A DNA stretch of 13,352 nt, taken from the IMG/VR virus record IMGVR_UViG_2667527789_000010. One strand, written 5' to 3'. A program made the translations under genes and the position numbers. This DNA comes from a virus. Its lineage: Duplodnaviria > Heunggongvirae > Uroviricota > Caudoviricetes. The first letter of the stretch is position 1. The number at the start of each line of letters is the position of its first letter. This document shows, piece by piece, positions 1 to 12,300 of this stretch. A model generated the notes under the pieces. That model was not told the origin of the DNA. It ran no database searches and worked only from the letters and a program-made list of their open reading frames with translations.

Positions 1-820
<820 letters not shown>

Positions 821-824
<4 letters not shown>

Positions 825-1132
825 ATATATTTATGATGAGGACGCTCGTGCTTATTGGCAGGATTTTCAATCTTAAAGGAGTACTGATGCTGCAGATAAG
901 ACTCAACTTTTTCTGACAATTTTTCTGCTACTTCCAGGAAGACTTGCCGGACGCTCCTTCTGGCTGCTGCCTCATAAAACTCCAGCGCAGCTCCTTCAAC
1001 ACGGTCCATGGCGACATCCAGGTCAAAAATTTCACCGTCAAAGCGTTCCTTGTCCTGTAAGGCTACAGTTACCGTAACTTTATTCTCAAAATTACGGACT
1101 CCTTTCACAACCAGTTCATAGTCTTGAGTCAT
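821..1132 (-). CDS. ydfR: YdfR-like lysis-cassette protein (DUF1327 by recall)
   Basis: 103-aa ORF between holin and endolysin, translationally coupled to the endolysin start. Position and length match Qin YdfR. Confidence 0.7.
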
Positions 1133-1136
1133 TGGA

Positions 1137-1352
1137 TTACTCTCCTCTCGCAGCCTTACGCCTGTCTTCTTTAATCTTGAAATAAAGATTTGTCAGATAC
1201 GTCAGCAGGCCAAAAACCAGGCTACCCAGCACACCGATTGCAGCCCACTGTGACGGAGTTACTTTATCGAGTAACTGTAATGCCCAGAAACCAGCATTAC
1301 CCGCCGATGTGCCATAGGCAACACCTGTTGTTAACTTATCCATTGATTTCAT
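1137..1352 (-). CDS. essQ: Holin, EssQ-like (71 aa)
   Basis: ATG at 1350-1352 preceded by GGTGAGGA. Product [71 protein letters not shown] has hydrophobic helices and a basic C-terminus. The track's 97-aa version is an upstream in-frame extension without an SD. Confidence 0.75.
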
Positions 1353-1572
1353 ATCCTCACCCCGATGTACACGGATGGTGCAATATGTTTGAAAAAGATC
1401 GGAGTCTACGGGGTAGTTTTGACAGCACACGTTGTTCTCAACGGCGCTAAAGAAACATACACATTAAAAATGTGAGTAATTATTTTGAAAGAAAGTCATA
1501 TATAAAATAATAATACGAGAAATGTTTTCATATTTAGTGTACTGTATACGGCCATTTATACAGGAAAAGCCT

Positions 1573-1743
1573 ATGTCAGAACGTAAAGACTCAAAATCAC
1601 GCCGTAATTATCTCGTTAAATGTTCCTGCCCAAACTGCACCCAAGAGTCAGAACACAGTTTTTCAAGAGTACAAAAAGGTGCCCTTTTGATCTGCCCTCA
1701 TTGCAACAAAGTATTCCAGACAAATCTTAAAGCTGTAGCCTGA
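1573..1743 (+). CDS. Small hypothetical zinc-ribbon protein (56 aa) with two CxxC pairs
   Basis: ATG at 1573 with AGGAAAAG SD. Product MSERKDSKSRRNYLVKCSCPNCTQESEHSFSRVQKGALLICPHCNKVFQTNLKAVA carries CPNC...CPHC. Sits in a strongly AT-rich island (about 1440-1800) on the strand opposite the late operon, followed by a hairpin at 1806-1825. Confidence 0.4.
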   Translation: MSERKDSKSRRNYLVKCSCPNCTQESEHSFSRVQKGALLICPHCNKVFQTNLKAVA

Positions 1744-1800
1744 TTGATTTTATTAGTAACAAGTATTTTTTATATTTTAATAATATATTTAAAGCAGATA

Positions 1801-1825
1801 ATAAAAAACCCGCCTGAGCGGGTTT
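1801..1825. terminator. Rho-independent terminator hairpin, probably bidirectional (clear T-tract on minus strand)
   Basis: AAACCCGC-CTGA-GCGGGTTT perfect stem-loop at 1806-1825. On the minus strand it is followed by TTTTTT, so it can terminate the cspB transcript; on the plus strand it follows the zinc-ribbon ORF but lacks a strong U-tract. Confidence 0.5.
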
Positions 1826-2106
1826 GAGATTGTGGTGCTTTTTGTGGGAGTCATCCACTTACGCACTTTGTTTTGCGATGCCAGCAGTTAGCTTCTGCTG
1901 TGAAACTATTCATGCAGCAAACCTGCACTTCACCACAATGGTTAGCATACTTTTCCTGATTAAGATTTTGCCAAATATGCTAGCCATTGTTTCATGTATT
2001 GGACCTCCTTACTTTTTATTAAAGAGATCCAATATTCACTACTCTGTCCGTATCTCTACTCAGGCATCAGCCTTCTTCGTTATCGTATACAGACGAGCGA
2101 TGAATT

Positions 2107-2322
2107 TTAATCAGTAATGATGACATTTGCTGCTGCAGGACCTTTAGCACCACTCTCTATAGAGAAGGTAACCTTTTGACCTTCAAATAAGGTTCGATAA
2201 TTATCATTCTGAATCGCAGAAAAATGCACAAACACATCTTTACTACCATCAACAGGAGAAATAAAGCCGAAACCTTTATCAGCGTTAAACCATTTTACTA
2301 AACCAGTCATTTTATTTGACAT
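2107..2322 (-). CDS. cspB: Cold-shock protein CspB (CspA family, 71 aa)
   Basis: [71 protein letters not shown] has the RNP1 (KGFGFI) and RNP2 (VFVHF) motifs. SD AAGGAA upstream of the ATG at 2320-2322. Confidence 0.9.
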
Positions 2323-2480
2323 TCTACATTCCTTAACTTGAGCCTTTCGGCATAAATGGTTTGCATAACAGAAACGACTTCGTACTTAATTGGAGAGACT
2401 CAAAGAAGGAATAAGTGAATAACACCTGAAATGAGAACTGCTTTAGTAAACTACTTCGTATATCGTCTGTTCTTCAAACC
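2323..2480 (-). promoter_or_regulatory. cspB long 5' UTR with cold-box-like element
   Basis: About 160 nt of non-coding leader upstream of cspB. Minus strand contains TGAAGAACAGACGA (complement of about 2464-2477), resembling the cspA-family cold box UGACGUACAGA. The promoter itself was not pinned down. Confidence 0.4.
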
Positions 2481-2620
2481 GACGCAGTCATTAACTCATA
2501 GTTGAACATATGAAGCAATGTTTATTTTAGACATCCAGCCACCTTCAATCCTATCAAAAAAGTAGTTTTCTCCAGGAACGTGTGTATGGTGCACCAGGTT
2601 ATCAGTATTAAGGAGTTTTT

Positions 2621-2832
2621 CTGTCCCCTAAAATGACAGGAATTGTCAAAAACTTTGACTACAAAAGCAGCAAAGGTCTTATATTCCCATCCGATGGCGT
2701 ATCGATGCCCAGCTTCACGTTTCAGCTCTCAATCTTCGAGATGCAGAAGAAATTACCACAGGATTACGCGTGGAATTTTGCTGGATAAATGGTTCGCGTG
2801 GACCTTCAACTGCCAATGTTTATCCCGGGATG
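2621..2832 (+). pseudogene. cspF/cspH-like cold-shock gene, degraded (start-codon change, frameshift, no in-frame stop)
   Basis: Frame 2 from ATG 2633 gives [22 protein letters not shown]. The Csp-like sequence then continues in frame 1 from 2698 as [42 protein letters not shown], consistent with a 1-bp deletion near GGC|CGT at 2696-2700. The SD AAGGAG (2610-2615) is positioned for a codon at 2621 that is CTG. The C-terminal frame has no stop until 3159. Confidence 0.55.
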
Positions 2833-2867
2833 AGATTCAATATCTCTATTGCCCCATTTAAAGCACA

Positions 2868-2902
2868 AAAACCCGCTTATAAGCGGGTTTTCTACTTTTT
2901 TC
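2868..2902. terminator. Bidirectional rho-independent terminator (tR'-like for the late transcript and terminator of the cspF-like gene)
   Basis: Perfect palindrome AAACCCGCTTA|TAAGCGGGTTT (2870-2891) followed by TCTACTTTTTT on the plus strand and by TTTTTGTGCTTT on the minus strand. Confidence 0.6.
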
Positions 2903-2938
2903 TAAACGTCGGATACACAAAGCCCATCGTTGAGAAAA

Positions 2939-2967
2939 TCTTATCCATGTTTTTTGAAAAATGCAAA
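2939..2967 (-). promoter_or_regulatory. Candidate late promoter (PR'-like) immediately downstream of the Q-like gene
   Basis: Minus strand reads TTGCAT (complement of 2962-2967), a 17-nt spacer, then TAAGAT (complement of 2939-2944), starting about 30 nt after the quuQ stop and about 50 nt before the terminator at 2870-2891. The arrangement matches lambdoid Q/PR'/tR' logic. Confidence 0.35.
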
Positions 2968-2997
2968 CATCATGTCGCCATCTTCAGCAAAAATCAT

Positions 2998-3750
2998 TTA
3001 TCTCGTCACCTTCCTCAATTGCGCTTCCGCGTATGCTTCTTCCTGCCAGCACTTTGTTACCAGTTTACCAATGACGTCCGCATACCCCTTATACCACTGA
3101 TAATCGGTCAGGTCTGGTACCAGCTTCTGGACATGACGTCGTGCCAGCGTGGTCGGTAAACGACTAAACCGGTTTCCATTACAACGCCCACAAATCTTAT
3201 ATACCGGTACGCCATGAAACCGGGTTCTTTTTTCATCCAGAACAATCCCTTTACCCTTACACCCTCTGCACGCTGTGCTGACTTCGCCCTTACCATGGCA
3301 ATGCTGACATAGTTCCTTCACCCATTCTTCCTTGATTACAGATTCCCCGCGTCTGTAGTGTTTCACCACTTCGCGCAATACATTATAAAATCCCGTACCT
3401 GAACAATGCTCACAGCGAGCCTTACTTGCCGCAGACCTGGAGTAATCAGCAAAGGCAAAATTCACGAGGTAAGGAATAATCTGTAACCGGATTTCTTCAC
3501 TCAATTTGTTCAATGTCGGGTTATCCAGTGCCATCGCGTAATTTAGCAGGCCTTCAATCGCAAACTGAGCGTCCTGAACACCAACTTTTGCCAGAAATAA
3601 GGCCAACCCAAGTGGTGCTTTCGACTGCACCATCCCCTGCGCTGCCATTACATCCGTAATTGTTAAACAACCGGTGCCTGTCGCTGGAGCGTCATCGCTC
3701 AATTTTGGAGATTTTGGGGAGTAATATTTTGGTAAGGCTTCAAGGTTCAT
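2998..3750 (-). CDS. quuQ: Late-gene antiterminator Q-like protein (QuuQ-like, 250 aa) with four CxxCxGxG zinc-finger repeats
   Basis: ATG at 3748-3750 preceded by GGAG. Contains [24 protein letters not shown] and CGRCNGNR repeats. Sits directly upstream of the lysis cassette and candidate late promoter. Length matches K-12 QuuQ by recall. The track's 260-aa version is an upstream extension. Confidence 0.7.
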
Positions 3751-3763
3751 GCTCGTTCTCCAC

Positions 3764-4813
3764 TTACGCCAGTACGCCAATTGCCAGCGCGCGATCGATA
3801 AAACGAAATATCAGCTCCAGTTGGGAGCCATACTTCTCTTCAAATGCCACTGTATCCGTATGCAGCTCGTTGTGATGCTTTCTGCACAAAGGCAACACAA
3901 AGAGATCATGTGCTTTTGTTCCCATTCCGCCCTGCCCGTGACCAATCAGATGATGCGGATCGTCGGCTGGCATACCGCAGCAAGCACACGGCTGTGTCTT
4001 AACCCAACGTGTGTATTTCTCCTTAACCCAGCGGCGACGTTTAGGCAGCTTCATGAAAGATTCCGGAGACTCTGGATCAACGGTGATGCTTACCACCGTC
4101 TTTTCCTGTGGTGTTTTTTGTTGCTGGTGGGCGTAAGGCAACGGTGCAAGATTTTTTGTGCGTTGTTTCAATATGCTGGTGGCGGTCTGCTCTCCCGGTA
4201 CGATGTCGCTTTCGCGGTACACCGAGCAGATTTTTTCCGCTGGTAATCCCAGCGAACGACGCGATACAGCCTCAGGTAGTGCATCCACCACCTGATTGCA
4301 GACCGCCCACCAGGATAATTCAGCCAAAGATAATTCCCGCTCCTGCGTACCGCTTATTGCGTGACGGATGACGTCAATCACCCATGCTGTCAGATTTTGT
4401 TGAGCAAGCAGCTCCAGTGATTCCGATGTCTGGTCACGCAGTTGGTTGTCGCAGTGCCAACACAACACCATTGCGCCGGTACCATAACGGTGAATGACTG
4501 TTTCAGAGTGATGGTAATCGCCATTAGGCCACTGGCAGGATGTAACATGACGTAATAGCCAGTCAGACAATGCGCCAACACCGCCAGCAGCACGAATCAC
4601 CCGTTCGTTACTAAAAAACGGCAGCAATGTTTTGTCTTCCGCCAGCGACTGGCGAACGGCAGGAACGACTCCGGATGGCAGATTACGCATGCTTTTTGGT
4701 TCCGGTTCCACCAGCACTCGAGGATTATGAAATATCTGTATGGATTCACGGCCCGGCTTAAGGACCACCAGCCCAAGCTCAGGCACCAGAACAGGTCTAA
4801 GTAATACCCGCAC
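3764..4813 (-). CDS. ydfU: YdfU-like protein (DUF968 by recall; 349 aa) with Cys/His-rich C-terminal motif
   Basis: GTG start at 4811-4813 preceded by a strong SD GGAGG and placed 1 nt after the stop of the upstream ORF; the track's ATG at 4852 would overlap that ORF. C-terminus contains CACCG...HHLIGHG...CRKHHNELH, a putative metal-binding or HNH-like region. Confidence 0.7.
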   Translation of the reverse strand: MRVLLRPVLVPELGLVVLKPGRESIQIFHNPRVLVEPEPKSMRNLPSGVVPAVRQSLAEDKTLLPFFSNERVIRAAGGVGALSDWLLRHVTSCQWPNGDYHHSETVIHRYGTGAMVLCWHCDNQLRDQTSESLELLAQQNLTAWVIDVIRHAISGTQERELSLAELSWWAVCNQVVDALPEAVSRRSLGLPAEKICSVYRESDIVPGEQTATSILKQRTKNLAPLPYAHQQQKTPQEKTVVSITVDPESPESFMKLPKRRRWVKEKYTRWVKTQPCACCGMPADDPHHLIGHGQGGMGTKAHDLFVLPLCRKHHNELHTDTVAFEEKYGSQLELIFRFIDRALAIGVLA

Positions 4814-4814
4814 G

Positions 4815-5093
4815 TTACCTCCAGATCCGTTGCTGGAAAGTGCGGGACGCACGTGGTGGGCGTTCGGAGTAAGGCAATCTGACTGAGATTATCCAGTGAC
4901 GGTAGTCGAGGCTAAGGGCTTTCTTAACCTCGTATCCGCGCCTGCGGTAACACTGAATTATCCATTCAGCCTGCTCTTCAGTGCATGGAGGGTGTTGGAA
5001 CCATTCAGACTTGAATGCGTGAGAATACCGCTCGTGCGTGCAGACAAGAACGGGCGAATTATCAGAATTGTAATATTTTACGTTGCGTGCCAT
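4815..5093 (-). CDS. Small prophage protein, Rem-like by position (92 aa)
   Basis: ATG at 5091-5093 preceded by GGAGAAAACCG. Lies directly upstream of ydfU, as rem does in Qin. Sequence identity to Rem was not verified. Confidence 0.5.
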   Translation of the reverse strand: MARNVKYYNSDNSPVLVCTHERYSHAFKSEWFQHPPCTEEQAEWIIQCYRRRGYEVKKALSLDYRHWIISVRLPYSERPPRASRTFQQRIWR

Positions 5094-5159
5094 CGGTTTT
5101 CTCCGGTGGCACGGTGTTACTCAGCGGGAGTTCAGCCCCGCGCAAGATTGTAGATGAGT

Positions 5160-5411
5160 TTATTCTTCTGCAAAAGCTAAAAAGCCTGCTTTTATTCCGA
5201 TCTCTTTCAGTGCCTGTAATGAAGTGACAAACTCACCTTCGCGCAAGATAAATCCGTCTGTCACTCGACCATCCACAAAATTAATTAACGCAGCCCCATT
5301 CTTTCGCAAACACATAATGCGGTAATGACTAACAAGATTTCCATTTTCAACGCACACAGCATAGAGGCCATCTTCACAAAAAATTTTACGCAATTCTTCG
5401 ATGTTCATCAT
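5160..5411 (-). CDS. Hypothetical protein (83 aa), unknown function
   Basis: ATG at 5409-5411 with SD GGAAGGA. Product MMNIEELRKIFCEDGLYAVCVENGNLVSHYRIMCLRKNGAALINFVDGRVTDGFILREGEFVTSLQALKEIGIKAGFLAFAEE. First gene after the hok terminator. Confidence 0.5.
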   Translation of the reverse strand: MMNIEELRKIFCEDGLYAVCVENGNLVSHYRIMCLRKNGAALINFVDGRVTDGFILREGEFVTSLQALKEIGIKAGFLAFAEE

Positions 5412-5530
5412 CAGAATCCTTCCGGATAATTAGCTCTCCCCTTTAAGGGACCATCCCTCTTATCCCTGCGCGCTACTTAAGTATTTTTGATTCTATTCCG
5501 GCACCGTCCAGAACTTCAAACGCGTTGAAA

Positions 5531-5559
5531 ATAAAAACAAAAACCCGCCGAAGCGGGTT
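5531..5559 (-). terminator. Rho-independent terminator of the hok transcript
   Basis: AACCCGC-CGAA-GCGGGTT hairpin (5542-5559). On the minus strand it is followed by TTTTTGTTTTTATTTT. A second hairpin GGCGAGGGA-TTTC-TCCCTCGCC (5599-5620) lies between the hok stop and this terminator and may be the 3' fold-back element of hok mRNAs. Confidence 0.6.
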
Positions 5560-5627
5560 AAGTGCGGGTGCGTTGAGGATGCCTGCCACATCAGAGGTGG
5601 CGAGGGATTTCTCCCTCGCCGGGTTTC

Positions 5628-5783
5628 TTACTCCTCAGGTTCGTAAGCTGTGAAGACAGCGACCTCCGTCTGGCCGGTTCGGATTCGTACCTCGCAGAGG
5701 TCTTTCCTCGTTACCAGTGCCGTCACTATGACGGTTAAACAGATGACGATCAGGGCGATTAACATCGCCTTTTGCTGCTTCAT
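5628..5783 (-). CDS. hokD: Hok-family type I toxin (51 aa), HokD-like
   Basis: MKQQKAMLIALIVICLTVIVTALVTRKDLCEVRIRTGQTEVAVFTAYEPEE: single TM helix plus the conserved Hok C-terminal region. SD AAGGAG lies 9 nt upstream of the ATG at 5781-5783. Confidence 0.85.
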   Translation of the reverse strand: MKQQKAMLIALIVICLTVIVTALVTRKDLCEVRIRTGQTEVAVFTAYEPEE

Positions 5784-5840
5784 AGCCTGCTTCTCCTTGC
5801 CTTTCGGCACGTAAGAGGCTAACCTACATATGTCTAGCAT
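5628..5840 (-). CDS. Mok-like reading frame (in-frame 19-codon N-terminal extension of hok)
   Basis: ATG at 5838-5840 with no SD gives MLDICRLASYVPKGKEKQA fused in frame to Hok. This resembles the chromosomal mok/hok arrangement in which mok shares the hok stop; that arrangement is recalled, not checked. Confidence 0.4.
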   Translation of the reverse strand: MLDICRLASYVPKGKEKQAMKQQKAMLIALIVICLTVIVTALVTRKDLCEVRIRTGQTEVAVFTAYEPEE

Positions 5841-5958
5841 GAAATTGGCCTCAGATTAATGTTAAGCGTCTTGCAGGACGCGTAATGTTAACTGGGGCTT
5901 TTCTCTATCTGCCGTTGGTGTTCATGCCCGAGGCAGATAGCCTCAAGCACCCGCAGCC

Positions 5959-5987
5959 ATTCTACTTAACTACCGTTACCTCGCCAA
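5959..5987 (-). promoter_or_regulatory. Candidate sigma70 promoter of the hok/mok transcript
   Basis: Minus strand reads TTGGCG, a 17-nt spacer, then TAGAAT (complement of 5982-5987 and 5959-5964). The predicted transcript from about 5951 to the terminator at about 5540 is roughly 410 nt, the size class of hok mRNAs. Confidence 0.4.
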
Positions 5988-6457
5988 TGTGAAATCAGTC
6001 AGAAAGGCGATCCATAAGAACAATAGCAAGACAATAAATCGCCATTACAGCCGTAATAGCCAGCGCACATTTGAGAACCAGCACCACAACCTCCTGTATT
6101 GGACGTAGACCAGTCCTGATGAATATGAGGCTGTCTCGTCAGTGATTCAATACAACTATTGGGTATAGTTTCTCTGATTTTTTCTGTGGAAATGGGGCAC
6201 AACCACTAGTCACCACCAGCACTTCTTTTAATACGCAAAGTCCGACACAAGCTAACCTTCTAGTCCGCTTTGAGCGAAAAACAGCCATAATTTAGTGCCA
6301 CGTATATAATGATAGAGCTATTCAAGCTAGCAATTCACATGTAAAAATTCAGAGGGTAGAAGCACATAGTTATAAATGTTGGCTCCATCGACAAATTGCG
6401 GTCTCAAGTACATTTATTAATGTTGCCCCCGCATTAACAAATCATCAAGGTGACGAC

Positions 6458-8245
6458 ATGGACGATATTAATATCAGCCTCGACGAACTTAACACTATTG
6501 ATTTATCCCCCTTAATCCAGAGTAAGCTGCCAGTTACCTGCTTTGATATCACAAAGTATCTTTCTAGCCTAGGTGATGGAAGAGCGGAGATAAGACTGCT
6601 AACCCATATTTGCGGTTTTCACTTTCGTCCCGAAAATCCACAGGTACCATTTGGTCCGTGCTTTCAAAGCAGCCAAGGTAGATCTGCAATTCCGGATGAC
6701 ATTAACGGGTTGTCGCTGGAGGTACTTTCTCAATTTTGCCCGACGATAGAGCTACCCGAACTTCAAGCTCGTATTGCTGATACACTTTGGGTTCGTAAAA
6801 TTGGTGGAATCCGTTTTCCTTTGCTGGCAGTCCGTGCTTATTATGCGTCCAGTATAGCTATTATGACATCGCAAGGGACGTGGGTTAGTGCTTTAGAACG
6901 CCTAGAGCGTGCGCTTAGGCTGTGTTGTTTTTTTCGAAAGCATACTGATTTCAGGGATGAATTTGATCAGCTTTCGGCACATCTACTAGCAGAGTATGAA
7001 CGTACCAGAGAACAAGGCGATTCACCTTATCCGCTGCGACTCCTGCAACTCGATATCGACTGTAAAGTGAGTGAGCCATCTTTTATTGCCCAGGAACTCC
7101 TGTTTCTGACAAAAAACTATCTGGCTCAAAAATTATTTTCATTTGCCGTCGATGCCTGTAAAACCGCAATCCCGATTGCGAATAGGTGCTGTGACAGAGA
7201 TACACAGTTTGAATTCTGGCGGCTTCTTGCCGATACACATCTGGAAGAGTCAAAATTCCAAGATGGCGGTATGATTTCGGCAGCCTGCATGCAGAATGCT
7301 ATTGAAGCACTGGCTAATATTCCAGGAACCCGAATAGAACGTCTTGCGCTGTATGAAGAAATGCGTGATTACCAAATCGAATCCCGTCACCAGATGTCTA
7401 TCCTTCAGTCTCCCCCTCAAGATATTAGTGAGATTGTCCATCAAGCCAAGAGTCGGGTAGTCGGAAGAGATTTGTTTGATATGGTTTTCAGACTTGCGAT
7501 GCTGGTCTGTCGGCCAACCAGCATTGAGAGACTTAAGGCTCAAGCAATAGAACAAAAGGCCAACAGCATAGCTTGGATGTTTGGATCAACACATATTGAT
7601 CATGAGGGAATGACACTTGCTCGCATACCCGCAGGATTGGGGATTGATGATGCAAATGGGGCAGTTATTTGGCCCATAATGATGACGAGAATGCGTATCG
7701 ACCATGAGTTGGCAGTAGCTGGGCAAATTATTCCTGCTACAGATGAGATCACAATGAAATATCCAATCTCGGAGGCGTTTTTTCGCGATATGTTCATCAA
7801 TCATCCCTTCATCCCGTTTGGGCATGAAGAGTTTTTCATCAAGGGTATGGTTTGCGGTTTCAATGGAGATTTTATGACGGCATGCCACGTGTTGATTCCC
7901 CAGCTCGAAAATAGTCTGAGATATGTGGCTAAAATTAAAGGTGAGGAACCATCGCAGCTTCACGGGGACGGTTCGCAAGAGCGAAATGGACTCAAGGGAT
8001 TACTAGATAATCCACTGATTATTGAAGCTTTCGGCGTAGACATAATTGGCAATCTTCAGGCCTTACTGGTAGATAAAATCTATGGTGATTTACGAAATCA
8101 ACTAGCTCACGGATATGTGCCTGCCGGTTACTACAATCAACCTCCCTGCATTTTTGCATGGTGGCTTGTATTGCACATTCTAATGAACCCTACGGCGAGA
8201 TACTGGCAAGCCACTTATGGCCAAGAGAGTGAGGCTCAGACTTAA
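6458..8245 (+). CDS. Large hypothetical protein (595 aa) with C-terminal HEPN-type R-x4-H motif; candidate defence/abortive-infection nuclease
   Basis: Unambiguous 1788-nt ORF with SD AAGGTG 5 nt upstream of the ATG. It is the only long plus-strand gene in an otherwise minus-strand block. Lower GC by eye (about 40-47%) and E. coli-rare codons (AGA, AGG, ATA, CTA). C-terminus contains GDLRNQLAHG; a second R-x5-H occurs at RDMFINH. No Walker A motif seen. Confidence 0.8.
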   Translation: MDDINISLDELNTIDLSPLIQSKLPVTCFDITKYLSSLGDGRAEIRLLTHICGFHFRPENPQVPFGPCFQSSQGRSAIPDDINGLSLEVLSQFCPTIELPELQARIADTLWVRKIGGIRFPLLAVRAYYASSIAIMTSQGTWVSALERLERALRLCCFFRKHTDFRDEFDQLSAHLLAEYERTREQGDSPYPLRLLQLDIDCKVSEPSFIAQELLFLTKNYLAQKLFSFAVDACKTAIPIANRCCDRDTQFEFWRLLADTHLEESKFQDGGMISAACMQNAIEALANIPGTRIERLALYEEMRDYQIESRHQMSILQSPPQDISEIVHQAKSRVVGRDLFDMVFRLAMLVCRPTSIERLKAQAIEQKANSIAWMFGSTHIDHEGMTLARIPAGLGIDDANGAVIWPIMMTRMRIDHELAVAGQIIPATDEITMKYPISEAFFRDMFINHPFIPFGHEEFFIKGMVCGFNGDFMTACHVLIPQLENSLRYVAKIKGEEPSQLHGDGSQERNGLKGLLDNPLIIEAFGVDIIGNLQALLVDKIYGDLRNQLAHGYVPAGYYNQPPCIFAWWLVLHILMNPTARYWQATYGQESEAQT

Positions 8246-8463
8246 AGTGAATAAGTTTACGAAGTTGGCACTTCCGGATGCATGTCCATATGAGTTGAGG
8301 CGATTTGGTTAATAAGGTTGAGTGCTGCTGAAATTATTCGATGTCCGCTTTTGGCACAAAGCGGACAACCACGCCAGATCTACCCTGTGCCATGAAAAAT
8401 GAGAATGTCAATTCACTCCTGAACTAATGCTTTTTAATCTAGTAACGTCTAAAATACCTAACA

Positions 8464-8865
8464 TTATCCCTGATAAAATGCCAGTATGCGCTGCATAACT
8501 TCACTCATCCGGCACTCGCGACAGATTATGTTTAGGCGACTGTCGTAGCGACGTATTTCTCCATCAGGTAACGACCAGATAACGTCCGGATCAACCACAG
8601 CTGTTTTCTTCACCTTTGCCCTCGAGAGTTTTTTGCGGGCGTTTTGCCAGTCCTTACGCGCCTGTTCAGACGGGAATAACCCGTAGCCGGAGTTGTATAC
8701 ATCGCCACTGGCTACCAGCTCTCTGGCAAGAACGCTCATCAGATATCTAGTCGCACCTGTTTTAGCTTCCAGTTGCCGTAACGTCTCACGACCGCTCTGG
8801 CGCACGAGTTCCACCACCTGCCCTTTAATTTTTTCCCGCTCTTCTTGTGTAAAAACTTTTGCCAC
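8464..8865 (-). CDS. Hypothetical prophage early-region protein (133 aa)
   Basis: GTG start at 8863-8865 preceded by a strong SD AAGGGGGA. Basic protein immediately downstream of the O-like replication gene. No recognisable motif. Confidence 0.5.
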   Translation of the reverse strand: MAKVFTQEEREKIKGQVVELVRQSGRETLRQLEAKTGATRYLMSVLARELVASGDVYNSGYGLFPSEQARKDWQNARKKLSRAKVKKTAVVDPDVIWSLPDGEIRRYDSRLNIICRECRMSEVMQRILAFYQG

Positions 8866-8905
8866 AAGTCCCCCTTAAAATTACCTCATGACCTGAAATC
8901 AAAAC

Positions 8906-9883
8906 TTATCCTCTGAAACCAGGCGGAATTTCTGTATCCGGTTCAGAAATATGATTAACACAACGCTGTACAGGTGAACGCCCCAGGCGGATGACCAGTT
9001 CGTCCCATTTTTCGCGGAGCTTTGACGGGCTCATGATGTTTTTTACCCAGAATGGATCCCGCTGTACCCGACCAAACATTTCACAAATTTGTCTGTGGCT
9101 TCTGCCATCCAGCATCCGCATTGTGCGCACATCATTGGCCCAGACAGTCCAGTTAGGCTCTTTTGGTCGCATGATCTCGCCATCATCACTGGCGGCCTGT
9201 TCGTAGAGACCCACGATCCGCCCCCATATCCACTGCGCACACGCCAGATCCTCCTGGCTACCCCACTGGCGTTTTTTCGCACTAAACACAACTGCGCCAG
9301 GGTGCCGGATTAAAAAATCCTGTTCAGCCGTCTGCGGGTCCGGTTGCGAAGCTTCCGGACGAAAAGTGTTTTTATTCTCTGTAGTAATCTCTGTTGTATT
9401 CTCTGTTGTATTCTCTGTAGGATCATCGGGCCATTTTGACCCGATGACATTGGGTCGTTTTGAACCAATGGAGCGTTTCATTTTGACCTCTTCCATCGTG
9501 TCATTTTGACCTGATGGAGCGGCGCATTTTGAACCGATGGATTCGCTCAATTTGCCATCATCTAAAAGCTCGCTCCCATAGTTAATCGTGTAGAAATTGG
9601 TCATATCGCGCTTTGATTTATTGAGCTTTTCACAACGCAAAAGCCCCAGCGTTTTCAGACTTGCAAACGCGCGCTTTAACGTTGACTCTGACCAGAATGG
9701 GAACTGTTCCAACCATTGTTCCGTTGTGTTGTAAATCCAGCGAACACCATCACATTCCATGCCGGAATTGGTATCTCTCAACCAGTAATGCAACTGCTGC
9801 AACACAATGGCTTCATTTAAGCCAATCTTCATCGCAAGCTGTGTGTTTATAACCAGTGGGCGTTCAGCAAAAAGAAGGCTCAT
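8906..9883 (-). CDS. Replication initiator, lambda O-like (replisome-organizer type) with internal origin iterons
   Basis: ATG at 9881-9883; the track's TTG at 9937 gives a longer version. N-terminal region (ERPLVINTQLAMKIGLNEAIVLQQLHYWLR...) resembles the DNA-binding domain of phage replication initiators. Central TENTTENTTEITTEN low-complexity linker is encoded by 12-bp tandem repeats, adjacent to 5 iterons. Sits downstream of the cro-like gene as O does in lambda. Confidence 0.65.
   Translation of the reverse strand: MSLLFAERPLVINTQLAMKIGLNEAIVLQQLHYWLRDTNSGMECDGVRWIYNTTEQWLEQFPFWSESTLKRAFASLKTLGLLRCEKLNKSKRDMTNFYTINYGSELLDDGKLSESIGSKCAAPSGQNDTMEEVKMKRSIGSKRPNVIGSKWPDDPTENTTENTTEITTENKNTFRPEASQPDPQTAEQDFLIRHPGAVVFSAKKRQWGSQEDLACAQWIWGRIVGLYEQAASDDGEIMRPKEPNWTVWANDVRTMRMLDGRSHRQICEMFGRVQRDPFWVKNIMSPSKLREKWDELVIRLGRSPVQRCVNHISEPDTEIPPGFRG
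9375..9422. repeat. Four tandem 12-bp repeats (TTCTCTGT[A/T]G[T/G]A) inside the O-like gene
   Basis: ttctctgtagta / atctctgttgta / ttctctgttgta / ttctctgtagga, read directly from the sequence. They encode the TTEN-repeat linker. Confidence 0.8.
9432..9540. repeat. Putative origin of replication: five iterons with about 23-bp periodicity (consensus CATTTTGACC-n-GATGG)
   Basis: Copies start at about 9432, 9456, 9479, 9502 and 9525 (cattttgacccgatg, gttttgaaccaatgg, cattttgacctcttcc, cattttgacctgatgg, cattttgaaccgatgg), inside the O-like gene as in lambda ori, and flanked by AT-richer sequence. Confidence 0.6.
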
Positions 9884-10385
9884 AATTCCATCCAGCTTTT
9901 TGTTGGTATTGCTGTCGATACGCAAGTTTGAAAGCAATTGCTTTTTCTATAAGTTCGTCAGTTTCACGATCCACTACGGCAGGATCAGCAAAAAGCAGTC
10001 CGGACTCCACCACATCGCCATATTCTTTGTTTAACCCGGCGATCATGTACGTGATGCTTTTTCCGTCACTAATTTCACGATACAACCTGAAATCATTAAT
10101 CCGGATAGCCTCCATAATTGCAGGCACTAGCGCCGTGAACTTTTCACGCTTATCCCTGGTGTCGATAGCCTTCCAGCGTTCGAATATCTTCACTCGATTA
10201 ACGCCAAGCGCTCGCTGATCAACCGCGCCACCTTCATCTGTGACACGCTGAACATCGATGTTCGGGCGCTCTTTCAAAGCCCAGAATGCTTCAGTGATTA
10301 ATATCGTCGCCTGCTCCTGTGTCATTCCTGGTCGACATATCCAGGCATCCAGAGCCTCACGAGCCTGTTCAGGAGTGATTTTCAT
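9864..10385 (-). CDS. Hypothetical early protein (173 aa) in the cII/YdaT position between cro-like and O-like genes
   Basis: ATG at 10383-10385 overlaps the dicC-like stop by 17 nt, and its own stop overlaps the O-like start by about 20 nt, indicating tight translational coupling. Function not recognised. Confidence 0.5.
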   Translation of the reverse strand: MKITPEQAREALDAWICRPGMTQEQATILITEAFWALKERPNIDVQRVTDEGGAVDQRALGVNRVKIFERWKAIDTRDKREKFTALVPAIMEAIRINDFRLYREISDGKSITYMIAGLNKEYGDVVESGLLFADPAVVDRETDELIEKAIAFKLAYRQQYQQKAGWNYEPSFC

Positions 10386-10676: not shown

Positions 10677-11084
10677 ATGGATACAAGAACCCTAGGCCAG
10701 CGAGTTCTGGCGCGACGAAAAGAATTACGCTTAACACAACGAGAAGCTGCGCGCCTCGCTGGAGTTGCTCACGTCACAATTTCACAATGGGAAAGAGACG
10801 AAACCCAGCCAGTCGGAAAACGATTGTTTGCTTTAGCGGATGCTCTGAAGTGCTCACCTACATGGCTAATGTTTGGTGACGAAGACAAGGCACCAGTGCC
10901 TGCACAAGAACTTCATGTGGAAACAGAGCTAACTCCCAACCACAAAGAATTGATCGAATTATTCGATGCTCTTCCATCTTCCGAGCAGGAAGCCTTGCTG
11001 TCTGAAATGCGCGCAAGAGTAGAAAACTTCAACAAACTCTTCGAAGAAATGCTTAAAGCGCGTAAAAATAAATCAATAAAATAA
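10677..11084 (+). CDS. dicA: CI-analogue HTH (XRE-family) repressor DicA-like, 135 aa
   Basis: HTH region LRLTQREAARLAGVAHVTISQWERDETQP. The downstream LFALADALKCSPTWLMFGDEDK and C-terminal EMRARVENFNKLFEEMLKARKN closely resemble K-12 DicA as recalled. Very short leader (candidate -10 TAGAAT at 10662-10667). Confidence 0.85.
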   Translation: MDTRTLGQRVLARRKELRLTQREAARLAGVAHVTISQWERDETQPVGKRLFALADALKCSPTWLMFGDEDKAPVPAQELHVETELTPNHKELIELFDALPSSEQEALLSEMRARVENFNKLFEEMLKARKNKSIK

Positions 11085-12244: not shown

Positions 12245-12300
12245 TTTCTGGTGACGTTTGGCGGTATCAGTTTTACTCCGTGACTGCTCTGCCGCCGTTT
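12245..12300 (+). ncRNA. dicF: DicF small RNA (division-inhibiting sRNA targeting ftsZ) with intrinsic terminator
   Basis: tttctggtgacgtttggcggtatcagttttactccgtgactgctctgccgcc followed by gtttt matches my recollection of the 53-nt DicF sequence. The 3' GGCGG...CCGCC stem plus U-tract forms a terminator. Located between the ydfB/C region and dicB as in the K-12 operon. Confidence 0.75.

Follow-up and report, generated by a model that had tools for sequence, protein, structure and literature searches.

The viral DNA considered here, IMG/VR record IMGVR_UViG_2667527789_000010 (Caudoviricetes; 13,352 nucleotides in all, hereafter the window), is a Qin-like cryptic lambdoid prophage of Escherichia coli, and its plus strand carries a gene for a protein of 595 amino acids (aa) in which a DUF7380 domain and a TPR-like helical solenoid precede a C-terminal HEPN domain. 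An earlier note, made from the letters of the window, had pointed to a long, clean open reading frame (ORF) with a good Shine-Dalgarno sequence. This is indeed what is found: 595 codons beginning with ATG, with AAGGTG at 6447-6452, 5 nt ahead of the start codon. The gene and its parts are as follows.

6458..8245, plus strand: the 595-aa ORF (DUF7380 + TPR-like solenoid + HEPN/DUF4209; PDC-S39 of PADLOC), ATG start, the same protein as WP_021514655.1
6467..6955, plus strand: DUF7380 (PF24098), aa 4-166, a small alpha/beta cap and the first helical hairpins (Pfam and model secondary structure)
6707..7393, plus strand: TPR-like alpha-solenoid, about aa 84-312, 11 helices in the model, the presumed sensor or autoinhibitory module
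7394..7819, plus strand: helical middle part, in which a beta-hairpin contains the invariant G384 and a long helix (aa 401-434) leads into HEPN (secondary structure)
7820..8242, plus strand: HEPN domain, about aa 455-595, including DUF4209/EMARD_N at aa 484-573
7898..7921, plus strand: PQLENSLR block, aa 481-488, in the first long HEPN helix (alignment)
8093..8110, plus strand: RNQLAH, aa 546-551, the predicted HEPN R-x4-H catalytic motif, with R546, H551 and G552 invariant in 36 of 36 homologues

Both ends of the protein are recognized by Pfam. DUF7380 spans aa 4-166 with an expectation value (E) of 3.4e-34 and 118.6 bits against a cut-off of 27, and its near-invariant residues are R105, D108, W111, A124, Y128, R151 and A152. 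DUF4209 (PF13910), whose current Pfam name is EMARD_N, spans aa 484-573 at 33.9 bits against a gathering threshold of 22.3. The string GDLRNQLAHG, which had been singled out near the C-terminus as a HEPN signature, lies at aa 543-552, and the signature holds up well: R546 and H551 are kept in all 36 homologues, aligned down to 22% identity, where seven columns in all are invariant (G384, Q482, E484, R488, R546, H551 and G552). Likewise, each of 144 full-length cluster representatives has R-x4-H at this position, mostly as RN-x3-H. Within the PQLENSLR block, N485 and S486 are near-invariant alongside the invariant Q482, E484 and R488. Taken alone, the motif is within chance, with four R-x4-6-H matches in the protein (at R255, R411, R443 and R546) against 2.9 expected from shuffles (P=0.33); R546 and H551 are meaningful because they are conserved and lie in a HEPN fold, not because the motif occurs. 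The R-x4-5-H matches at R255 and R411 were discarded as chance, being unconserved. A proposed weaker motif, RDMFINH, is present at aa 443-449, but it lies 103 residues upstream of RNQLAH rather than about 80 and lacks conservation among the 36 homologues, and it was rejected as a second HEPN motif.

An AlphaFold2 model built from the 36-sequence alignment is almost all-helical, with a predicted local distance difference test (pLDDT) of 90.7 and a predicted template modeling score (pTM) of 0.74, and its N-terminal half is modeled as a TPR-like fold. At the level of the fold, the HEPN region resembles AbiV (5.0), Las1 (5.0) and RnlA/LsoA (4.6-4.8). Both marks of the HEPN superfamily, an all-alpha helical-bundle fold and a conserved R-x4-6-H, are thereby seen in the single HEPN domain of each chain, and the assignment of the C-terminus to HEPN, with its conserved R-x4-H, stands because a HEPN-like bundle was found around RNQLAH. 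Searches of the PDB with full-length and C-terminal profiles returned weak TPR matches or nothing relevant, so that by profile search no solved structure of a close relative exists there; Foldseek against viral structures gave weak TPR- and SNAP-like matches, none at E<=0.001. The motif search found no Walker A sequence or P-loop in the protein and the Pfam scan no nucleoside triphosphatase (NTPase) family, in agreement with the earlier view that it is not an ATPase.

The protein belongs to a large family, already catalogued, whose candidacy for defense comes by prediction. The PDC-S39 profile of PADLOC matches aa 43-581 at E 2.9e-102 (profile positions 54-602 of 615), and a second PDC-S39 model does so at E 2e-101; PDC entries are candidates drawn from genomic association. 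Of 5,426 complete E. coli genomes, 152 (2.8%) have the protein, under the RefSeq name "DUF4209/DUF7380 domain-containing protein"; all copies are at least 99% identical and all are chromosomal. Two PHROGs families of unknown function are matched as well, and NCBIfam has no matching model. A profile search of 1.84 billion cluster representatives found 8,072 relatives (3,220 at E <= 1e-30), nearly all about 590-650 aa long and matched over their full length. DUF4209, the C6orf70/ERMARD family, was placed in the HEPN superfamily by Anantharaman et al. in 2013, whose prediction was that its members are active enzymes and who recorded fusions to TPR and operons related to restriction-modification (R-M) (PMC3710099). 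More recently, Table S5 of DefensePredictor (Science 2026) has listed WP_021514655.1 (assembly GCF_003334005.1) as a "Predicted novel defense gene", with a mean log-odds of 4.34 and a remote HHblits match to AbiJ at a probability of 72.8 (PMC13092281), and a 2026 preprint has recorded PDC-S39 in the defense inventory of an E. coli O157:H7 strain. With two Pfam domains, a PDC-S39 match, about 8,000 cluster representatives and a RefSeq name in 152 genomes, the protein can no longer be called an orphan, as it had been; nor is it undescribed, given the placement of DUF4209 in 2013, the PADLOC entry and the exact accession in DefensePredictor. A second, different E. coli DUF4209 protein, WP_000710784.1 (602 aa), has a higher DefensePredictor mean log-odds of about 7.4 and was also not cloned (PMC13092281). 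The literature searched yielded nothing on DUF7380, the 2013 HEPN paper alone on DUF4209, and PDC-S39 in inventories without a phenotype. The named Abi HEPN families (Abi_C/AbiJ, Abi_2/AbiD-F, AbiV and RnlA/LsoA) gave no sequence match in Pfam (E<=1), NCBIfam or PADLOC. A near-identity DNA search of a phage collection likewise gave no match, and a protein-level search of the same collection gave two distant P2-type matches and nothing else.

The gene travels in a cassette of its own, the limits of which are apparent from comparison of its copies.

6263..8366, plus strand: mobile single-gene cassette of 2.1 kb, consisting of about 195 bp upstream, the ORF and about 120 bp of 3' region (shared span)
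6263..6457, plus strand: upstream non-coding region, conserved with the cassette, the presumed own promoter and 5' untranslated region
8343..8366, plus strand: hairpin with a 9-bp stem (GTCCGCTTT-TGGCAC-AAAGCGGAC) at the 3' end of the cassette (sequence, fold and cassette boundary at 8366)

Specifically, the span 6263-8366 recurs at 82-97% identity in unrelated backbones, including a Klebsiella IncF plasmid (locus L138) and other lambdoid prophages (L025, L026, L030 and L033), and similarity between the backbones breaks off at about 6263 and at 8366. A scan for consensus sigma-70 sequences called no promoter in 6263-6457, and no promoter or terminator was supported at the cassette ends. The hairpin at 8343-8366 has a perfect stem, is followed by no T-run on either strand and left the terminator scan silent; it could be a terminator or a recombination or insertion boundary. 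No plausible small ORF occurs in the cassette, including on the same strand in the upstream region, and a hidden antitoxin RNA was not found there either, the 3' region folding no better than usual (z -0.68).

The settings into which the cassette has moved are varied. All copies at least 99% identical occupy the same slot, between hok and a DUF977 gene. A copy of 97% identity is found on 12 Klebsiella plasmids, mostly conjugative (16 of 31 plasmid matches overall were typed as such); for example, in the K. pneumoniae IncFIB/IncFII plasmid NZ_CP031801.1 it lies at 6809-8909, in the leading region, where umuDC with a group II intron borders it on one side and IS110 with an anti-restriction gene on the other. 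An 88% copy sits in the nin region of another lambdoid prophage, and an 83% copy in Brenneria sits between ArdC and DUF4238. More distantly, three independent backbones have a relative of 39-40% identity bordered directly by antiterminator Q on one side and the lysis genes on the other, one of about 37% in Pseudomonas syringae adjoins MkoA of Mokosh (PADLOC E = 0) and itself lies behind an Xre-type helix-turn-helix gene, one of 27% is placed between an integrase and a relaxase, and one of 26% is near a Mu-type portal. Type I HsdR is found near two distant copies, and 44 IMG/VR viral contigs carry relatives. In two unrelated genomes, a DUF4238 gene stands immediately downstream of the DUF4209 gene (L009:9761-10927 and L059:4403-5410); one pair overlaps by 4 bp and the other is that of Brenneria. 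Rousset et al. 2022 validated a DUF4238 protein as anti-T7 (PMC9122126). The comparison shows cassette-like movement into slots of phages, plasmids and defense islands, and the shared cassette, the difference from K-12 and the variety of backbones all bear out the proposal of cargo that moves horizontally and here occupies a variable slot of the prophage. From composition, the support for a foreign origin is no more than moderate. The gene had been thought AT-richer than its flanks, a difference that is weak in overall G+C content (44.9% against 45.7% for the whole window) and plain at the third position of codons, where the gene has 40% and the hok, DUF977 and DUF968 genes have about 50%. Its use of rare codons, also taken as a sign of horizontal origin, is modestly high at most, with AGA, AGG, ATA and CTA at 5.4 per 100 codons against 1.2-7.1 in neighboring genes.

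Hotspots of the P2 tin/old type, moron slots between Q and the lysis genes, and the proximity of Mokosh, R-M or DUF4238 genes are typical of defense cargo. Together with the PADLOC and DefensePredictor classifications, they make a role in defense or abortive infection, as the earlier note had suspected, the most plausible one, even though a distant relative tested as pFR103 gave no detected defense. We lean towards the view that the gene is a single-gene moron of the Qin-like prophage, encoding an autoinhibited sensor-HEPN ribonuclease (RNase) of the DUF7380-TPR-HEPN family that blocks other phages. HEPN RNases generally act without a metal, need two HEPN domains to form the active site, and are kept inactive by an antitoxin or a sensor domain. 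In the lysogen, the upstream region of the cassette would drive production of the protein, as is suggested by the travel of that region with the gene, and the DUF7380 cap and TPR-like solenoid would hold the C-terminal HEPN domain inactive. When another phage infects the cell, the N-terminal half may sense one of its products or some effect of the infection. Two HEPN domains would then pair, as seems likely because HEPN dimers are established and each chain has a single HEPN domain, with R546 and H551 of each chain building a composite RNase site. Cleavage of cellular or phage RNA would stop translation, thereby aborting the infection.

The P2 hotspot supplies both context for this defense reading and one of several points that weigh against it. 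DUF4209 single-gene cassettes rank 13th (193 occurrences) and 55th (76 occurrences) by frequency among the cargo of the gpA-gpQ (tin/old) hotspot of P2 (PMC9122126). The 13th-ranked cassette, from E. coli S88, was tested by Rousset et al. with eight coliphages as "Putative HEPN" (pFR103), a low-copy construct in MG1655 that retained the native promoter; it appears solely in Table S2B, "additional tested systems", and the validated systems are in Table S2A (PMC9122126). From this listing, it follows that no defense was detected with those eight phages. The active P2 systems reported were DUF4238, a three-gene system and DprA-PRTase (PMC9122126). Over the 399 residues that can be compared, the pFR103 protein shares 99% identity with the DUF4209 protein that phage vB_EcoM-569R9 encodes between gpA and gpQ; the latter aligns over its full length with the family of the window protein at an hhalign probability of 100% (E 2e-52, 581 columns, about 19-24% identity), keeping LRHKLAHG and replacing the NS of PQxENSxR. 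Negative results with small panels were common in that study, where 5 of 8 additional P2 systems gave no defense (PMC9122126), and the pFR103 result weakens the claim of defense without refuting it. Further points on the same side are that WP_021514655.1 is missing from the DefensePredictor table of cloned systems (PMC13092281), that its score of 4.3 is modest, that the searchable literature yielded no experiment on the 595-aa protein, that some copies lie in small islets amid housekeeping genes with no obvious marks of a mobile element, and that the leading-region plasmid copy beside an anti-restriction gene and the Brenneria copy beside ArdC would fit counter-defense too. A separate single-gene system named "HEPN-TPR", from the P4 hotspot of E. 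coli ATCC 8739 (pFR83), is also in Table S2B, with no defense detected (PMC9122126).

The Klebsiella plasmid copy and the Brenneria copy raise the question of whether the protein might instead be a counter-defense or establishment factor, that is, a HEPN RNase made early by an incoming plasmid or phage that disables RNA-based host immunity (e.g., CRISPR RNAs, retron or toxin-antitoxin RNAs, or nucleotide signals). The 97% Klebsiella copy is in the leading region between umuDC and the anti-restriction gene, co-oriented with anti-restriction, DUF3560 and methyltransferase genes, the 83% Brenneria copy comes directly after ArdC, and a P2 homologue without detected defense is also in keeping with such a role. 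In the window, however, the gene is oriented away from all operons of the early and late phases and is preceded by an upstream region of its own, an arrangement that suits expression in a lysogen rather than on entry, and the hotspot, moron-slot and Mokosh/R-M/DUF4238 settings are typical of defense cargo. Moreover, PADLOC and DefensePredictor both class the protein as defense, and the position of the plasmid copy may be incidental, because IS110 and a group II intron flank it. Counter-defense is accordingly considered unlikely.

As for the condition of the gene, a sample of 60 E. coli copies contained 56 intact ones, among them that of ATCC 25922. Insertions of IS3/IS1203 split it in a few E. 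coli genomes (H12-H15, H53 and H68), and truncated copies on IMG/VR viral contigs (L031, L032 and L034) end at residue 547 or 518, the former falling at RNQLAH. Such losses, and the defective nature of Qin-like prophages, might suggest a decaying passenger, a remnant ORF of a cryptic prophage that is no longer selected. This is highly improbable for a clean ORF of 595 codons that is at least 99% identical and mostly intact in about 150 genomes, that keeps its full-length architecture in thousands of clusters across phyla, and that yields a confident structure model.

In the immediate surroundings of the gene, both adjoining genes run on the minus strand.

5628-5783, minus strand: hokD, left neighbor of the 595-aa ORF
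8464-8865, minus strand: DUF977 gene, right neighbor of the 595-aa ORF

Beyond hokD on the left are rem, ydfU (DUF968) and the Q antiterminator; to the right of DUF977 are a replication-type ORF and then YdaT, on the strand opposite to the HEPN gene, and the nearest further plus-strand gene is a CI-like repressor at 10677. The earlier note was accurate in placing the gene between the hok locus and the replication module, transcribed opposite to its neighbors. Collinearity with K-12 Qin, at 97-98% identity, covers window positions 127-5797 and resumes from 10106 onward, and E. coli strain 190 has the identical locus beside rspB, the site at which Qin too is integrated. The equivalent interval of K-12 Qin is relE-relB-ydfV-flxA-ydfW, in agreement with the earlier note on relBE and flxA there. 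The intervening 4.3 kb (5798-10105) differs from K-12 Qin over its whole length. Besides the HEPN gene, it holds the DUF977 gene, a 343-aa replication-type ORF without a Pfam match and the N-terminal part of a YdaT-family gene; K-12 Qin keeps mere remnants of these (ydfW and ydfX). A complete sok antisense RNA lies at 5778-5952, directly upstream of hokD (Rfam RF01794, 112.7 bits), where K-12 similarity stops at 5797; K-12 has relE-relB there, its hokD being the tail of the relBE operon. Because sok is complete upstream of hokD and likeness to K-12 ends at 5797, the window prophage can be said to keep a classic hok/sok module. The approximately 300 bp between sok and the cassette start (5953-6262) have no annotated gene, and short minus-strand ORFs of 67 aa (5999-6202, without a Pfam match) and 49 aa (6139-6288) occur in this region. 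In viral contig L018, the segment from 5782 to the cassette start, comprising sok and the adjoining region, moves with the gene, and the backbone differs further upstream. Ordinary Qin features elsewhere in the window are a cspA-type thermoregulator 5' untranslated region in front of cspB (2091-2483, minus strand) and the DicF small RNA (12246-12297, plus strand).

Clustering of all ORFs within 3 kb at 96 loci found no recurrent neighbor in the gammaproteobacterial branch, and downstream ORFs of about 160 aa in Vibrio and Aeromonas are mutually unrelated and without a PADLOC match; a conserved partner gene was thereby ruled out for the branch of the window protein. In a cyanobacterial branch, the DUF7380-DUF4209 gene has a conserved ORF downstream in the same orientation at 12 loci (L091, L100, L101, L103, L109, L112, L116, L119, L125, L127, L131 and L137; e.g., L137:11806-12246, plus strand). 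This ORF encodes a PIN domain in about 146 aa, and the pair may represent a form with two genes and an additional RNase.

With hok/sok next door and the relBE slot of K-12 occupied, it is tempting to suggest an addiction or stabilization toxin, i.e., a module for post-segregational killing or self-preservation like hok/sok itself, without an anti-phage role. Carriage by plasmids and prophages would suit such a module, as would the occurrence of IS3 knock-outs. There is, however, no antitoxin: neither MNT nor any other conserved gene lies nearby, and within the cassette no small ORF and no stable antisense structure was found. A sensor-like N-terminal region of 450 aa would be superfluous for a simple toxin, most copies are intact, and the probability of this explanation is accordingly low.

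The distribution of the family is patchy, as a motif scan of one genome per species found it in about 175 of 185,579 species. The taxa include Gamma- and Alphaproteobacteria, many Cyanobacteria, Chloroflexota, Verrucomicrobiota, Armatimonadota and Acidobacteriota. A DUF4209 relative on plasmid NC_018225.1 of Natrinema sp. J7-2 (34.5% identity over the matched pieces) extends the family to archaea, this being a haloarchaeal plasmid. By analogy with ERMARD/C6orf70, the RNA-degradation protein of eukaryotes that is associated with the endoplasmic reticulum, the protein might have a role outside conflict, in RNA processing or regulation for the element or host, or as a non-catalytic HEPN scaffold: DUF4209 is shared with eukaryotes, where the family is conserved and has been followed back to their last common ancestor (PMC3710099), the Pfam domain is now named EMARD_N, and some bacterial copies lie amid housekeeping genes. 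The patchiness, down to 2.8% of E. coli genomes and those few species representatives, and the cassette-like sites tied to mobile elements speak against such a role, and the R-x4-H is invariant, unlike that of non-catalytic HEPN domains; a role outside conflict is accordingly considered unlikely.

Beyond the single gene, the family as a whole, with its approximately 8,000 clusters in many bacterial phyla, phages, plasmids and an archaeal plasmid, could conceivably be a widespread single-protein immune sensor, in which the DUF7380/TPR half directly recognizes a phage component and frees the HEPN RNase. Given the DUF4209 shared with ERMARD, it would be a further prokaryotic immune module that eukaryotes inherited, distinguished by a new sensing domain. 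This broader proposal is tentative, and rather doubtful as a whole. Should the gene indeed defend, the catalogued candidate PDC-S39, which is common in enterobacterial prophages, plasmids and the P2 hotspot, would become a real system. Likewise, two Pfam domains of unknown function would acquire one, a DUF7380-TPR type of sensor would be added to those known for HEPN effectors, and the result would bear on the origin of eukaryotic ERMARD. Phage typing and phage therapy might also be affected, because the gene is present in ATCC 25922 and in Klebsiella conjugative plasmids. The present finding itself adds little, since the HEPN assignment, the candidate-defense label and the accession were already public.

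Among known systems, AbiV, AbiJ, AbiD/F, RnlA/LsoA and HEPN-MNT lack the 450-aa DUF7380-TPR half, and the window protein has no sequence match to them. Nor is a cognate MNT or RnlB antitoxin present at the locus, as it would be for HEPN-MNT or RnlA/LsoA; HEPN-MNT toxin-antitoxin pairs have an adjacent MNT gene and a HEPN protein of about 130 aa, and here the neighbors are hok/sok and DUF977 and the protein has 595 aa. Csm6/Csx1 and Cas13 differ in that the window protein has no CARF/Rossmann sensor, CRISPR context or RNA guide, and Cas13 has two HEPN domains per chain against one. Avs/STAND proteins resemble it in joining a TPR-like repeat module and a nuclease effector in one polypeptide, but the window protein has no STAND/P-loop NTPase and the order is reversed, with the repeats N-terminal and the effector C-terminal. 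DS-11 (CBS-HEPN) of DefensePredictor, found in the same kind of E. coli isolates, is likewise one protein with a regulatory domain fused to HEPN, and its defense is abolished by mutation of the HEPN catalytic residues (PMC13092281); its regulatory module is CBS and it is validated, whereas the window protein has DUF7380-TPR and is predicted only. To the C6orf70/ERMARD-DUF4209 family the protein is linked by DUF4209 above the cut-off, the R-x4-H, TPR-like fold matches and HsdR neighbors; eukaryotic C6orf70/ERMARD is described as having a transmembrane region and as associated with the endoplasmic reticulum (PMC3710099), whereas the window protein has an additional N-terminal DUF7380 and moves as a cassette on mobile elements. 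The "Putative HEPN" of pFR103 shares the same architecture and is single-gene cargo of a phage defense hotspot. Finally, the window protein is a member of PDC-S39, a single-gene candidate of PADLOC-DB v2, from which it shows no structural difference, and the single-gene character of that entry is seen here in the lone ORF of the cassette and in a gammaproteobacterial branch without a partner.

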